Of a stretch of 64,000 nucleotides of DNA, positions 22,613-29,494 are shown in pieces. The stretch lies in NCBI GenBank assembly GCA_023920165.1, contig CP089275.1, positions 3,038,001-3,102,000 on the forward strand, read 5' to 3'. A program made the translations under genes and the position numbers. The first letter of the stretch is position 1. Every line of letters begins with the position of its first letter. Source of the DNA: Curvularia clavata. Taxonomy: Eukaryota. The notes beneath the pieces were generated by a model, which made no database searches, had not been told where the DNA came from, and worked only from the letters and a program-made list of their open reading frames with translations.

Positions 22613-25333
22613 GCAGTCTATGAGATCGAACAGGCCCCTGGATCATTGAGCTGTGCTCATATAAACTATATTCCTCCGATTGAGAGACATACACTGCTGG
22701 AGGATCTAAAGAGCTGAAGAGAAGCGCCGCTGGCTCCTGTCTACCACAAGAAGCTATTCAAGTCAGGTCGTGTTCCTTTGGGGCGTTCCAGTCCAAGTGG
22801 ACATGCGCCGGGCTCTCTCCGCAACTCATATGGAGCCACAAGGCTGGCCTCTTGAACCAGACTCCATGCAAAGATGGAAGCGATTGTGAGCCAATGCATA
22901 CCACGCCATTGCGACAGCTTCGAAATTAGACGGAGTCCACTCTAAACCCGCATCCGCATACCAGCCCGATGCCAGAGTCGTATAATGAACAATCTATTCG
23001 CGTCAGTTGCATGCTACTACTCCGCTTGACATAGTCTCCTCATTCATTCGACGGGGTCTTCTTCTCCCCCTTGAATCTCTTGAATTGAGCTGTCCACGCC
23101 TACTGATGGATACTCAACAAGCCCGCAAGCGCCTGCACATCGCCGAGTCAACCCGTGTCACCATAGTAACCTCATCATACATTTTTGGGGATGTGAGGGG
23201 AAACAATGGGGGAATGGGGGGTTGGGGTAACCAAACTAACCAGGAGCTATCTTCAAACCTGAATTAGCATTAGCACTTCCCGTAACTAAGCCCGTACTAA
23301 GCCCAACGATACCTTTGGGCCCATCTATCAGTTCATTAGTCAAAACCATGAACCCCGTCGCCACAGGCTGTGGCCAAAGCTTTTTGCGGCTGACTTGCAG
23401 ACCGCTTCTGAATCTTTTCATATCATCTCGTATACTCGCACATCTTTTCACTGTATGATTTTGGCAAGGTTCTACAAGCACCTCGTGACATCGTGCATGA
23501 TATGCAGGGTTTTTTAACCAGCGGTGCACCACGCCATCAATGCTGTTGGTGGTGCCCGAAGTTACCTTGCTCACAACATGCAGTATACTCTTTCGGTCCA
23601 TATAACGTCGATTGTGGCTTTTCAGGGTCTGATTCTACATTTTTTCTCGTGGTGCGGTGAATGGAAATAGGTCTTGCCTACATGCATAAGTCAATGGGAC
23701 CGGCCGCTAGACCGAGCACAATGCCACCGATAATGTGATAGCAGGCGAGCAGGGTGCTGGGTCTGGGGCCTGTTGAATGATTTTCTATGAGATTTTCCTT
23801 GGTGAAGCTTTAGCGTCCGTTAGCTTCTCTTTTCCCTAGCACTTCTTCCCGTCTTTTAGAGGGATACTACCTGTCGGGTACTGACAGCTGTAGCTTTTTA
23901 GTATCCAAAGATCTTTTCTGGTTAGTTTGGCCGCCTCGAGAGTCGATAGTAATATGTTTTTCTTCCTAATTAGCCATCTAAGGTGCCAGGTGTACAGTAT
24001 ACCACACAGTTGTGTTCCGGTGAGCTTTTCCGTCGATGCATCCGTGAGTATGCCGGTGACAAAATTAGCTGTCTCCGGCTCTCCTTATACGCTGCCGACA
24101 GCGCGCCCTGCCAAGTGGTTTTCGTATTCTAATTACTGGTCTTCTAGCCCTGGCTTCTGGTTTCAAACACACTCTACGTTTACTGACCGCTCTTTGTGTC
24201 GTTCGCGGGGCCTACTCCGGTGGATATGAGTTGTCTGGATCGACGCTTTCTTGTGACGTATGCTCCCTGGTTAACCCTGCATGTATTGAGGATATTGCTT
24301 TGGTTTCTAGTTTTGCAGTGGTAGGACAACTCACTCTCTATTTTGAAGAGTTCACACTCTACCCGTAGCAACTGCAGACCCGGCACATCCATATCCAGGT
24401 AACCCTGCAAATCTCTATCTTACATAAACAATATGATGATTAGCTAATAGAAAGACGTTGAGCGAGAAAATAAGCGTGATTGATTGCCATGGTTTACAAA
24501 ACATGCGCACTCTAGTGCCACGATCGGCCACACCGAGTAGGAGGGCAGTGTAGTCCGAGGTTGACAACGCTAACCCGTATGGAGGAGGTTTTGAGGGAGG
24601 TTTGGTAGGACGACGGGTCTGACTCGTGTCCAATTTTCCATCACGACGCGTACACCTGCATGTAGACGTATGTAGGCATTCACAATCTGCTGCCTACTAT
24701 ACAGCTTTTTTCAAGAGCTCGGCCCGTATAGACTCTCATTCGAAGTTATGTGAGAGAGTATCGTCGGTGCTGCGAAAGGCTAACAAGTTAATTACATAAT
24801 ATAGTCAGACTCCAAAATAATCATGATTTGGGCTTTACTGGTAACCATGATATGAAGTCTTCCTTTGATTTATAAGTCTGAGGTCCAACTCATCGCTTGA
24901 GAACATGTACTTGAAATCGTAAATTATCATCAGTAAAAAGATGTAACTATGAATTTATATTTTATTAAAGTAGGGAAATCTAAAAAGATATCAATGGAAA
25001 TATGATTCAAAATGTTACTCCATCCCCTAGCTACTAAAAGCCAAGGCAGAAACAAAGCTGTCATCGTTCGTGAGTAAATCTGGGATGTACCGTATAGCTG
25101 ATAGAGGTATTCCAGCAGATGTTCTCTGGAGAGCAAAAAATAACATCTTAGAATTTGACAACATTTCTACCCATTGCAGGGACGATCGGATATACTATAG
25201 ATCGATGTTATTGTCAAGAGCACTTACTATTGATATGCCCACCAAGGCATAACAGCTTTGTCAGAGGCAAAAAAGCAGAAGCTCCTGCCCTCAGATTTGG
25301 AAAGCAAAGACATCTCGAGGCTGACGAAACAGC

Positions 25334-25340
25334 AAAAAAA
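25334..25340 (-). terminator. RNA polymerase III oligo-T terminator of the tRNA-Pro gene
   Basis: A7 on the plus strand gives T7 on the minus strand, about 10 nt downstream of the discriminator base. Confidence 0.75.
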
Positions 25341-25349
25341 GTGATGAAT

Positions 25350-25489
25350 GGGTCTTACCGCGACTCGAACGCGGGGCCTCTCGCAAGCTGTGCTCGGGAA
25401 ATCCCTAAGCGAGAATCATACCACTAGACGGTAGGGTTGTTAGTACTCGAATGTGTTGTATTGTGATGTGGTTGCTTACCCATAAGACC
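25350..25489 (-). tRNA. tRNA-Pro-AGG: tRNA-Pro(AGG) with a canonical 17-nt intron (25386-25402) plus a 51-nt spliceosomal-like insertion in the D-stem (25429-25479)
   Basis: Minus strand reads GGTCTTATGG [51 nt] TCTAGTGGTATGATTCTCGCTTAGGG [ATTTCCCGAGCACAGCT] TGCGAGAGGCCCCGCGTTCGAGTCGCGGTAAGACCC. It has a perfect 7-bp acceptor stem GGTCTTA/TAAGACC, anticodon stem CTCGC/GCGAG, T-stem CCGCG/CGCGG with TTCGAGT loop, and C73. Functionality is unproven. Confidence 0.9.
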
Positions 25490-25527
25490 AAACACGTGAT
25501 TTGATGGAAGAACAGGGAATTCCAAAC

Positions 25528-25533
25528 TTTATA
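25528..25533 (-). promoter_or_regulatory. TATA box upstream of the tRNA-Pro gene
   Basis: TATAAA on the minus strand, 39-44 nt upstream of the mature tRNA 5' end. Confidence 0.5.
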
Positions 25534-25829
25534 TTGGTGAGTATTTCCATCTCAAGGGGCTTGGGCTGTGAAGATTTCTCGTTCGCGTGGTCGCACTAAC
25601 ATGAAGTGCCCCCACCCAACCAGTCTAACCGAACTCGAGACTCACACGCCCTATGATACCCAATCCGCGACTAGAACATTCGATATACAAGGAATGGGTG
25701 GGGTGAGTGAACCTTTGAGTGCATCAGGCCTCCCTAGCAGGCGGATATATTCGAAGCGCTTCTCTTGTCTGGATTTCTTTGGCAGTCAATTGCGCTCGAA
25801 ATCCATCTGTACACGACAAGTAAGCAAAG

Positions 25830-26447
25830 ATGGCTCGAGCAAACGTCAATATTCGGCCCGCTGTCTTCCCAAACGACAAGGAAATTGTGGGACAACTCTT
25901 CCTGGCCTATGCACAATCTCTGCCCGTCAGTCTCGACTTTCAAAACTTCGAACATGAGCTGGCTGGATTGCCAGGGAAATATGCAGTTGAAAAGGGCGGC
26001 GCAGTGTGGTTGGCGTATGCATCGTCCAAATCATCTGAGTTGCCCTCTTCCACAACATCCTCTGCACAGAATGGCGAAGCACAGCCGGAACCTCGTCCAG
26101 GGGAAGAGGAACGGGCGGTAGGGTGCATAGCCATCCGACCGTTTTTCACTACGCCGACAACCGCCGAGTCTTCCGCGTTACTGGCGAACTCGACTTCATC
26201 AAGCACCACCACATGCGAACTCAAACGGCTTTTCTTGACTCCTGAATCGCGAGGCCTTGGTGTATCCAAGCTATTGATGGATGTCGCAATTGCCCAGGCG
26301 AAGAAATTGGGTTACAAGGAAATGTTGCTTGACACGCTGAGAACGATGACGCCTGCACGGAAACTGTACGAGGGGTTCGGGTTTGAGGAGGTTGGCAGCT
26401 ATTACGAAAACCCAAACGATGCTGTCTTCTATCGACTGGTGTTATGA
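25830..26447 (+). CDS. GNAT family N-acetyltransferase
   Basis: LDFQNFEHELAGLPGKYA, CELKRLFLTPESRGLGVSK (acetyl-CoA motif A) and LDTL..M..ARKLYE.FGF. Intronless, with two Ser/Thr-rich loop insertions. Confidence 0.92.
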   Translation: MARANVNIRPAVFPNDKEIVGQLFLAYAQSLPVSLDFQNFEHELAGLPGKYAVEKGGAVWLAYASSKSSELPSSTTSSAQNGEAQPEPRPGEEERAVGCIAIRPFFTTPTTAESSALLANSTSSSTTTCELKRLFLTPESRGLGVSKLLMDVAIAQAKKLGYKEMLLDTLRTMTPARKLYEGFGFEEVGSYYENPNDAVFYRLVL

Positions 26448-26764
26448 GGAAAGCCATACACAGCTATTTGAAAGGCATATGCGAAATCACGGTCGGCAAA
26501 TACAAAGTATGTTGGGGTTGGATCGGAGTTGGCGCTTGGCAAATAGTAAATGACAGCTAGGAGCGTGATCGCGCGTTTGACAGATATCGTCATCGATTTC
26601 GCCTAGCGCGTCGCCATTGTTCGCGACCGTGTCTGCAGCCGCAACTCCAGTCTAAGGGGTTACCGCCACCGACACCCGACACTGGCATTGATAATTACTC
26701 TCTTGCGATATACCACTCTTGTTGTTAGTTTTTGGTCCTGTGCACAATCTAATTACTTTCCGTG

Positions 26765-29494
26765 ATGGGCGCAACAGTAAAATCCCAGTCGACACCTGCG
26801 TCGTCCCCGCCACCAGTCACCATGGACAAAGAGAATGTGTCAAAAGCGATGCAAGAGGAAGAAGAGCGCATGAGGATACAGCGTGAGAAGGAAGACGCAA
26901 AACGGGACGCGCAGCTGGAGAAGGAGAGACAGGCGGACATCAAGAGTGGACGAGAGGTTTTGGATAAGAAGTTTCAGCAATTGGAATTCCTCATGAACAA
27001 ATCGAAGCTGTATGCGTCAGTGATGCTTCAGCAAATGCAAAAGCAAGAAGAAGAAGAGAACGCGCAGAATGAGAAGACGAACGGTGCAACTTCGACACGC
27101 GAGAAGAACGCTGAAAAGACAGCTGCCGAATCGCAGAGACGAGCCACACGCGCAAGCGCAGCAAACGGAACCGCCTCAGCAAACACAGAAGAGACAGACA
27201 CCACCCCGAACAAGGGGCGTGGGGGATCCAAGAAACAGGGCACGAAAGGCCGAGGGAGGCCAAAGAAGCAGCAATCGGACATATCTAGCTACTTTAGCAA
27301 AGAAGAGCTGAAGAAGAAGGCGGGCACTGAAGAGGCAGCAGAGGACGACAAAGATAACGTCAAGACGGGCGATATTGGAATGACGAACTTGAAGTCTGCC
27401 CGGCAGCCCAAACTTGTCACTGGAGGTACAATGCGATCATACCAGCTAGAGGGGCTTGAGTGGATGGTCTCGTTATACAACAACGGTATCAATGGTATTC
27501 TGGCTGACGAGATGGGGCTGGGAAAGACTATACAGACCATTGCCATGTTGGCGCATTTATGGGAGAACAAATCGTACGGTCCTTTTCTGATTGCGGCACC
27601 ACTCAGTACCACAAGCAACTGGGTTGCAGAATTTGAGAAGTGGACACCAAGCATCCCGGTCATGCTCTACCACGGCGATAAAAAGGAGCGCGAGAGATTG
27701 CGTAAAACTAGATTACGAAACCCTGGCACCGCTGACTTCCCTATCATGGTCACGAGCTATGAAATATGTATGAACGACCGCAAATACCTTACCAGCTTCG
27801 GATGGCAGTTCATCATAATTGACGAGGGGCATCGCATCAAGAATCTCGATTGTCGACTAATTCGCGAGCTGCAGCAGTTTCAATCTGCAAACCGTCTGCT
27901 TATTACCGGTACTCCACTACAGAACAATCTGACAGAGCTATGGTCGCTACTTCATTTCCTTCTGCCTACAGTATTCGACAAGCTGTCGACCTTTGAGAGC
28001 TGGTTCGATTTTTCTGGCCTGAAGGACAAGGCGAGCTTCGAGCAACTACTGTCCGAAGAGCGCCAGCAATATCTAGTCAAGTCATTGCATGCAGTGCTAA
28101 AGCCCTTCCTGCTACGCCGCGTTAAGACGGATGTCGAAAGCTTGATGCCCAAGAAGCGCGAATACGTTTTGTACGCACCGCTAACCTCGATGCAACGTGA
28201 GCTGTACCAAGCCATTCTCGATGGTACGAGCCGATCCTTTCTCGAGGACAAGGCAGTGGAGCGGCTCAGCATTGGTCTGAGTAGCCGAGCAGGAACACCG
28301 TTGAGCATTCGCAGTGCTAACGGTAGTAACAAGCGCAAAGCTCCAAGCGGCTTGGACACTCCTAACAAGAGCTCAAAGACCTCTCGCGCTGGCACACCTT
28401 CTTCTGTCGCATCGACTAGAAGCCGAGGCCGTCCAAAGAAAAACTACGAGGAGGTTAGTGACCGAAAGTACTTTGCCAATTTGGGTCAATCGGAATCAGA
28501 GTCAGAAGACGAGCACGATCTAAGCTCGGATGCTGAGGAAGAGAGAATACGTGCTGCTACCTTTGAGATTGCGAAACGTCAACTCATGCAGAAGAAATTG
28601 GGCAACCCTATCATGCAACTTCGGCTATGCTGTAATTCGCCTTACAACTTCTTCAACCCGTTCATCAAGGTCGATACGGATGGGACTGAAACGTTCGCTT
28701 CAGAAACAGAACCGGATGAGACAATCGTCTCAACTTCGGGCAAGATGCTCCTATTGGACTCCCTCCTTCCCGAGCTAATAGCCCGGGGCCACAAAGTCCT
28801 CATCTTCTCTCAGTTCACAACGACCCTCGACCTCCTCGGCCACTATTTGAATCTTCGATCCTGGAACTACTCTCGTATAGATGGCTCAGTTGCACAGACT
28901 GATCGTCAAGACCAAATATTAGCTTTCAACAAACCCTCATCTGCCACAAAAGAAGCAGCTGATATCTTCATCCTGTCCACGCGTGCTGGTGGCCAGGGTA
29001 TCAACCTAGCAGCAGCAGATACCGTCATCCTTTTCGACAGTGATTGGAATCCACAACAAGATCTTCAAGCCATGGATCGCGCACACCGTATCGGTCAAAC
29101 TCGCAACGTCATTGTTTACCGCTTTGCAACGCGCAATACAGTCGAGCAGAAACTCCTTGAGTCCGCCGAAGCGAAGCGCCGTCTTGAAAAACTTGTCATT
29201 CGAAAGGGCGGCGTGCGCAATGATCGCGGCGGGGCTAGAGGCGCAGAGAAAGAGCAGGAGCTTGAAGAGCTTCAAAAGCTTCTAAGAAGGAGTGATGGAG
29301 AAAAGTATGATATTAATGAGGCAAGTAAAGGTGGAAAACTGTTGGGTAAAGAGGAGCTTGAGATTCTGTTGGACAGGAGTGATGATGCATATGAGAGAGC
29401 GGAGAAGGGGTTGGATGTTGGCGGAGACGGCGCTGTTTTCCAAGCTGTGGGGAAGAGGGAAGAAGGTGCACTTATGGAGGGTTTGCGGGCGTAA
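26765..29494 (+). CDS. IRC5: SNF2-family chromatin remodeler, HELLS/LSH/DDM1 (Irc5/MUS-30) subfamily
   Basis: Intronless. N-terminal coiled coil, RQPKLVTGGTMRSYQLEGLEW, GILADEMGLGKT, DEGH box, LLITGTPLQNNL, STRAGGQGINL and QAMDRAHRIGQ. Confidence 0.9.
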   Translation: MGATVKSQSTPASSPPPVTMDKENVSKAMQEEEERMRIQREKEDAKRDAQLEKERQADIKSGREVLDKKFQQLEFLMNKSKLYASVMLQQMQKQEEEENAQNEKTNGATSTREKNAEKTAAESQRRATRASAANGTASANTEETDTTPNKGRGGSKKQGTKGRGRPKKQQSDISSYFSKEELKKKAGTEEAAEDDKDNVKTGDIGMTNLKSARQPKLVTGGTMRSYQLEGLEWMVSLYNNGINGILADEMGLGKTIQTIAMLAHLWENKSYGPFLIAAPLSTTSNWVAEFEKWTPSIPVMLYHGDKKERERLRKTRLRNPGTADFPIMVTSYEICMNDRKYLTSFGWQFIIIDEGHRIKNLDCRLIRELQQFQSANRLLITGTPLQNNLTELWSLLHFLLPTVFDKLSTFESWFDFSGLKDKASFEQLLSEERQQYLVKSLHAVLKPFLLRRVKTDVESLMPKKREYVLYAPLTSMQRELYQAILDGTSRSFLEDKAVERLSIGLSSRAGTPLSIRSANGSNKRKAPSGLDTPNKSSKTSRAGTPSSVASTRSRGRPKKNYEEVSDRKYFANLGQSESESEDEHDLSSDAEEERIRAATFEIAKRQLMQKKLGNPIMQLRLCCNSPYNFFNPFIKVDTDGTETFASETEPDETIVSTSGKMLLLDSLLPELIARGHKVLIFSQFTTTLDLLGHYLNLRSWNYSRIDGSVAQTDRQDQILAFNKPSSATKEAADIFILSTRAGGQGINLAAADTVILFDSDWNPQQDLQAMDRAHRIGQTRNVIVYRFATRNTVEQKLLESAEAKRRLEKLVIRKGGVRNDRGGARGAEKEQELEELQKLLRRSDGEKYDINEASKGGKLLGKEELEILLDRSDDAYERAEKGLDVGGDGAVFQAVGKREEGALMEGLRA

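Follow-up and report, generated by a model that had tools for sequence, protein, structure and literature searches.

A tRNA-Pro(AGG) gene of a Pleosporales fungus split by a 51-nt insert with spliceosomal donor and branch-point signals

Introns of the mRNA type have been described in snRNA genes, namely in U6 of Schizosaccharomyces pombe and other fungi and in U1, U2 and U5 of Rhodotorula hasegawae (available part of PMC5855946, where Tani & Ohshima 1989, 1991 and Takahashi et al. 1993, 1996 are cited for them). Spliceosomal introns were also found in the nuclear rDNA of ascomycetes (Cubero et al. 2000; Bhattacharya et al. 2000; both as cited in the available parts of PMC5855946 and PMC11889510), and for both kinds of host gene these sources give reverse splicing as the usual explanation of origin, followed, in the proposal for the snRNA genes, by reverse transcription and recombination. 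For tRNA genes, the available part of PMC4090602 treats eukaryotic multi-copy tRNA genes of which single copies have D-arm or T-arm insertions and are regarded as pseudogenes, and the non-canonical tRNA introns of nucleomorphs and of Cyanidioschyzon merolae (Kawach 2005; Soma 2007, 2013). Introner-like elements (ILEs) have been described in Dothideomycetes (van der Burgt et al. 2012, cited in the available parts of PMC3609843 and PMC4457414). In the full-text literature searched, the coverage of which leaves out most subscription journals, no tRNA gene was found to be described as having a spliceosomal or mRNA-type intron.

In the 64,000-nt stretch of DNA analysed here (the window), a tRNA-Pro(AGG) gene occupies positions 25489-25350 of the minus strand and is split after G10 by 51 nt. 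Exon 1 (G1-G10, comprising the 5′ strand of the acceptor stem and nt 8-10) is located at 25480..25489 and is followed on the same strand by the intron-like insert at 25429..25479, by exon 2 at 25403..25428 (nt 11-37, comprising most of the A box, the D-arm, the 5′ strand of the anticodon stem and the anticodon AGG), by a 17-nt intron of the endonuclease type between nt 37 and 38 at 25386..25402 (i(37,17) in the ARAGORN output), and by exon 3 at 25350..25385 (nt 38-73, comprising the B box/T-arm and the 3′ strand of the acceptor stem). A run of seven T resembling a Pol III terminator (25334..25340, minus strand) is separated from the tRNA 3′ end by a 9-nt trailer, and a TATAAA (25528..25533, minus strand) is located at -44..-39 from tRNA nt 1. 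The 17-nt intron is canonical both in its position at 37/38 and in its pairing with the anticodon region (ARAGORN and predicted fold), its CCC being paired with GGG of the anticodon loop in the predicted fold. No run of more than three T was found within 25350-25489, nor from the leader to the terminator.

On the native DNA no tRNA was called by ARAGORN, and none was returned by Rfam, either at the gathering threshold or with E-values up to 10 on 25250-25650. The Rfam matches obtained on the latter region, GmglnB1 5′UTR (E 2.2) and sR17 (E 7.9), were at chance level. At relaxed settings, ARAGORN called on the native locus a 'tRNA-Leu(tag)' in which one arm was malformed and the intron had 50 nt; this call was rejected as an artefact of the shared acceptor and T-arm. 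When the 51 nt were deleted by script, ARAGORN called a tRNA-Pro(agg) with i(37,17) and drew a regular 72-nt cloverleaf with anticodon AGG, whether or not the 17 nt were kept; in this cloverleaf, exon 1 was paired with 25351-25357. All stems were intact, and the 17-nt intron, the B box, the upstream TATAAA and the T7 terminator were present. The first-pass annotation had thus correctly described a tRNA-Pro split between nt 10 and 11 by 51 nt, the restoration of this tRNA on removal of the 51 nt, and the ordinary 17-nt intron at 37/38 together with intact stems and a T7 terminator; its expectation that such genes would be missed by standard scanners and its reading of GTAAGC, from 25479, as a consensus donor and of TACTAAC (25445-25439) as a branch point held as well.

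The donor of the insert (G|GTAAGC at 25480|25479) agrees with the U2-type pattern GTRNGY, and TACTAAC, the branch A of which lies 11 nt from the junction, agrees with the branch-point pattern CTRAY, for which a distance of a few to about 30 nt from the 3′ end is usual. The combined motif GTAAGY-N20-45-TACTAAC was found once in the window, both strands included, compared to 0.04 matches expected (100 shuffles), and this single match begins at the exact base where the tRNA is broken. In a deletion scan, which took out 35-130 nt following each GTRNG in the window, only 8 of the 85,576 constructs gave a tRNA call, and all eight started at the donor of the insert; no other split tRNA and no false positive were found elsewhere in the 64-kb window. 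The similarity in length to the mRNA introns of the window, which had also been pointed out in the first-pass annotation, stands in so far as 51 nt falls inside the range of 48-68 nt shown by 16 such introns, all of them inferred from bridged open frames and none supported by RNA. These 16 introns have GTRNGT-like donors (GTAAGT, GTGAGT, GTACGT etc.), CTRAY branch points and YAG or AAG ends. The branch point of the insert is nearer the consensus than those of all 16, TACTAAC being present in none of them (0/16).

TACTAAC is rare in the window, with six occurrences on both strands, and the textbook branch point of the insert relative to the host introns may hint at its source or be due to chance. 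The composition of the insert is unusual (41% A, 33% C), and the insert is predicted to be unstructured, with an MFE of 0 kcal/mol and with 200 of 200 shuffled sequences folding at least as well. It contains no T run of 4 or more; since 11 of the 16 ordinary introns share this feature, it carries little weight as a sign of selection for passage by Pol III. In its donor, branch point and length, and in being unstructured, the insert agrees with a spliceosomal intron, and most likely it is one or is derived from one.

At its 3′ end, the insert terminates in CCG and not in a YAG acceptor, a point that the first-pass annotation had passed over. A shift of the boundary by the single ambiguous G gives GG..CC, so that an AG is missing from every tRNA-restoring junction. 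Past the branch point, AG is first met in TCTAG, which corresponds to tRNA nt 11-15, at 16 nt from the branch A. The resulting 56-nt GT...TACTAAC...AG unit (25424..25479, minus strand), the last five bases of which are this TCTAG, is the only strict donor/branch/AG match in the window, and when it was deleted no tRNA was called even at the relaxed ARAGORN threshold. Since use of the first AG takes out tRNA nt 11-15, no tRNA would be obtained by ordinary GT-AG splicing, and the ordinary spliceosome is expected to destroy the D-arm and not to restore it. To our knowledge, non-AG acceptors are very rarely used by the spliceosome.

The insert also affects the predicted promoter. The A box (nt 8-19) is split after nt 10, so that nt 8-10 are now 51 bp upstream of nt 11-19; the gene therefore has the B box and T7 terminator of a type 2 Pol III gene without a contiguous A box, and the upstream TATAAA has likewise been displaced from the remainder of the A box by 51 bp. 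As expected for type 2 Pol III promoters, the displacement would tend to shift the start of transcription into the insert. Transcription of the gene by Pol III would still be possible, given that no T run longer than three occurs from the leader to the terminator.

The locus is followed on the plus strand by two genes. The first encodes a GNAT-family acetyltransferase (25824-26447; PF00583, E 1.9e-10) in a single open frame; it is divergent from the tRNA gene at a distance of about 300 nt. The second (26753-29494) encodes a SNF2-family helicase, named in several sources lymphoid-specific helicase / PasG / ISW2-like (PF00176, E 2.6e-84). The SNF2 protein showed 90% identity to that of Stemphylium and 87-89% to those of Alternaria, which assigns the window to the Pleosporales.

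A search of public sequencing runs gave 19 rows from five coded organisms, all of them contigs for which origin from DNA or RNA is not on record. Four runs, one per organism (X1, X9, X13 and X19), were compared by aligning their contigs to 24450-26450 at 80% likeness. A 4342-nt contig of X1 (depth 28.5) was found to join 25428 directly to 25480, and the same join was made by a 289-nt contig of X19 (depth 3.2), the source of either contig being DNA or RNA. Both contigs skip exactly 25429-25479, keep the 17-nt intron, as contig and window agree in span over 25345/25291-25428, and run on into the flanks. The insert was thus held by a contig in none of the four runs (0/4) and the locus without the insert was present in two (2/4), the contigs of X9 and X13 not covering the junction; stretches lacking cover were given no weight, and contig assemblies drop rare variants.

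The flanks differed from the window by 19 of 971 letters in X1 and by 7 of 205 in X19, which corresponds to 1-3% divergence. All differences were located in the flanks, and the tRNA exons and the 17-nt intron showed none, which fits a recent insertion as far as can be judged from the alignments. At about 2% divergence, zero changes over 89 nt are expected by chance in about 1 of 6 cases, so the intact tRNA sequence has little weight as a sign of upkeep. Both X1 and X19 have a C for the first T of the window's TATAAA (T to C at -44); the stronger TATA of the insert-bearing lineage may be linked to its displaced A box.

Further contigs from these runs showed variation around tRNA-Pro(AGG) genes. 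In X9, a 168-nt contig aligned over 25347-25429 matches exons 2-3 and ends at the exon 2 border; it has a different 3′ flank (an 80-letter loose end), which marks it as another locus, and a variant 37/38 intron with 2 substitutions and 3 small indels. Judging from this alignment, there are other tRNA-Pro(AGG) copies with a 37/38 intron in related fungi. In X1, 91 other letters stand in place of 124 nt at window positions 25166-25291, downstream of the tRNA terminator, and a separate contig of low depth (4.13) has a 105-nt skip (24865-24971) with 6 other letters in its place and about 10% mismatches. As judged from these contigs, the intergenic DNA beside the tRNA gene is structurally variable among relatives.

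Whether the X1 and X19 contigs derive from DNA or from RNA bears on how the missing insert is to be read. A second contig of X19 begins at 25796, 34 nt upstream of the GNAT start codon, and continues for about 245 nt beyond the stop; the X1 contig ends about 58 nt past the SNF2 stop, and the tRNA contig of X19 stops shortly before the T7 run, 5 nt beyond the tRNA 3′ end. A TATATT at 25742-25751 (plus strand), about 45-50 nt upstream of the start of the X19 GNAT contig, fits a Pol II start. Because the contig ends resemble transcript ends, and because depths differ several-fold between adjacent contigs, the two runs are probably RNA-seq. Both neighbouring genes are single open frames and thus contain no retained mRNA intron by which DNA could be told from RNA. 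On the plus strand, the 51-nt skip reads CG..AC and has no splice signals; therefore either plus-strand read-through RNA or DNA without the insert would mean that the insert is absent from the genome concerned. The X1 contig was found to run past the T7 terminator and to be continuous with the two plus-strand genes.

An insertion private to the window's lineage explains these data for contigs of DNA and of RNA alike and for transcription of either strand, and for this reason it is favoured: the insert is very probably private, and the X1 and X19 contigs would reflect the DNA of the relatives. That they represent spliced RNA of an insert-bearing genome is very unlikely. A strain-private insertion had been set beforehand, in the first-pass annotation, as one of the observations that would speak against a functional intron. 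This is what the X1 and X19 contigs show, unless they consist of spliced RNA. The proposal made there, that the pre-tRNA matures by way of both the spliceosome and the tRNA endonuclease, was not supported, since there is no AG at the junction, the A box is displaced and the relatives' contigs are without the insert; a functional dual-intron tRNA is accordingly unlikely to very unlikely.

Several other readings of the locus were weighed. The insert could be a recently gained working intron, private to this lineage and spliced precisely at GT..CG before an endonuclease step yields tRNA-Pro, and we consider this unlikely. A consensus donor, a perfect branch point 11 nt from the junction and an intron's terminal G that has been kept speak for it, as does the intact remainder of the gene; the lack of structure and of T runs of 4 or more is compatible with Pol III, although the missing T runs weigh little when 11 of the 16 ordinary introns are likewise without them. 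However, non-AG acceptors are very rare and a well-placed AG is available 5 nt further on, and the geometry of the A box is disturbed. A variant in which, for example, the AG at tRNA nt 14-15 is hidden in a folded D-arm is doubtful to the same degree. The U6 transcript of S. pombe, made by Pol III and spliced by the spliceosome (available part of PMC5855946), provides a precedent for a working intron of this kind. If the insert were a conserved functional spliceosomal intron, the relatives' DNA would carry it and the X1 and X19 contigs would be spliced minus-strand RNA. The exact tRNA-restoring junction in two coded organisms from two studies, with the 17-nt intron kept, would agree with this, and so would the transcript-like contig ends, among them that of the X19 tRNA contig just before the T7 run. 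Such an intron would, however, need a CG acceptor that is used efficiently, or else an AG that the relatives have and the window alone has lost (at this divergence a coincidence of about 1-2%), besides minus-strand transcripts with a leader of at least 195 nt, whereas the X1 contig passes the T7 run and joins plus-strand genes. No unspliced form was present in the contigs of any of the four runs (0/4), though contigs drop rare variants, and relatives without the insert are a simpler assumption that fits DNA and RNA alike; we therefore give this reading a very low probability. Only slightly more room is left for a Pol III tRNA gene with a spliceosomal intron that works, in which case the relatives' contigs would be spliced RNA keeping the 17-nt intron and the window's copy would be using, or would have just lost, a non-AG acceptor.

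It is also quite improbable that an ILE, i.e., a mobile and multiplying spliceosomal intron, landed in the tRNA gene. The window comes from a fungus of the Pleosporales (Dothideomycetes), the class in which ILEs have been reported (available part of PMC4457414), and the insertion is apparently recent. However, known ILEs are described as having copy numbers in the hundreds, exceeding regular introns in length and having stable predicted structures (available part of PMC3609843), whereas the insert has a length of 51 nt, a folding energy of 0 kcal/mol and no AG. Neither a second copy nor a source of the insert was found within the 64-kb window, and a 22-mer from the core of the insert had no exact match in a metagenome collection, nor did a 22-mer of the 5′ flank and exon 1 match there. 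Removal of the insert as a non-canonical tRNA intron, cut by the tRNA splicing endonuclease via a bulge-helix-bulge (BHB), has the precedent of the D-arm introns of nucleomorphs and Cyanidioschyzon (available part of PMC4090602). In the canonical geometry, with a 4-bp central helix formed by tRNA nt 5-8 and insert nt -6..-3 and with each junction placed in a 3-nt bulge, only 2 of the 4 central pairs were possible at the 51-nt insert and no outer helices could be drawn (hand check), and neither the MFE nor the centroid fold contained a helix bridging both insert junctions (z-score -0.57); the probability of this route is close to nil. An artefact of assembly or sequencing in the window's genome might be suspected because the best-matching public run contains only a fraction of 0.48 of the window's sampled words. 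No known error mode places donor and branch-point consensus at the exact tRNA-restoring boundaries, though, and the flanks are collinear with those of the relatives, which makes an artefact highly improbable.

We consider it rather probable that the locus represents a lineage-specific insertion of intron-derived DNA into one tRNA-Pro(AGG) copy, which is probably disabled by it. According to this proposal, the ancestral locus, as kept in two close relatives, would have been a tRNA gene of the usual Pol III type that had the 17-nt intron at 37/38. A stretch of 51 nt with an mRNA-type donor and branch point would then have entered between nt 10 and 11 in the lineage of the window, and no target base apart from one ambiguous G would have been lost or duplicated. 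Two origins may be envisaged. A 56-nt copy of an excised intron may have been taken up where the DNA was broken between nt 10 and 11, and would have been joined there through a 5-nt TCTAG microhomology with tRNA nt 11-15; alternatively, reverse splicing may have placed the intron precisely, its acceptor having changed later. A single substitution separates CCG from a YAG acceptor. The present copy would be a young pseudogene or a failed intron gain, most likely disabled, and tRNA-Pro would presumably be supplied by other tRNA-Pro(AGG) genes.

If the preferred reading, i.e., a lineage-specific insertion of intron-derived DNA, is true, the locus offers a datable natural snapshot of the entry of spliceosomal-intron sequence into a gene that Pol II does not transcribe: the insertion is exact, without target duplication, in a tRNA gene, and absent in relatives that are 1-3% diverged. 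It would be relevant to the mechanism of intron gain, be it reverse splicing or the capture of intron copies where DNA is broken, a question also raised by the introns of U6 snRNA. On the practical side, it points to a blind spot, since ARAGORN and Rfam miss the gene and similar events would go unseen in the annotation of fungal genomes. If the minority reading of a working intron is true, a new route of tRNA maturation would be represented, and the tRNA-Pro(AGG) of this Pleosporales clade would be the first tRNA known to depend on the spliceosome as well as on the tRNA splicing endonuclease. The weight of the case is moderate, as it concerns a single copy with a defective acceptor.

Compared to known systems, the insert shares with ILEs that it is a recent, lineage-specific sequence of spliceosomal type in a Dothideomycete. 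It is unlike ILEs, as these are described in the available sources, in being short and unstructured, in having no other copy in the 64-kb window or the metagenome collection, and in having a host gene that does not code for protein. The tRNA genes of nucleomorphs and Cyanidioschyzon resemble the present gene in being interrupted twice, once in the D-arm region; in the available source, however, their introns have 3-24 nt in the nucleomorph example or depend on a BHB for cleavage by the endonuclease, whereas the insert has 51 nt, no BHB and spliceosomal signals. The insertions in D- and T-arms that are regarded as pseudogenes are similar to the insert in affecting the D-arm region of one nuclear tRNA gene without forming a BHB. 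In the source seen in part, these insertions are short and of no particular kind, whereas the insert has donor and branch-point consensus far beyond chance.

The introns in ascomycete rDNA are, like the insert, of the spliceosomal type and present in genes of Ascomycota that are not transcribed by Pol II. According to the available parts of the sources, these rDNA introns differ from the insert in that their host genes are transcribed by Pol I, that conservation between related species is frequent and that the terminal consensus can be recognised at both ends. A parallel is also provided by snRNA introns, which are described, in the part of the source that is available, as short, with mRNA-type donor and branch point, and located in a small structured non-coding RNA gene as the insert is, U6 being transcribed by Pol III. 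Differences were found in the ends, snRNA introns having GT-AG and the insert having no acceptor AG, and in the host, since tRNA is absent from the list of non-coding RNA hosts in the available part of the snRNA-intron paper (PMC5855946) and the host of the insert is a tRNA gene. As a further difference, the insert was not seen in two close relatives. The U6 intron of S. pombe is spliced out of a working gene. Without the AG, and thus without one defining feature of a spliceosomal intron, the present case resembles the snRNA introns in what was inserted and where.
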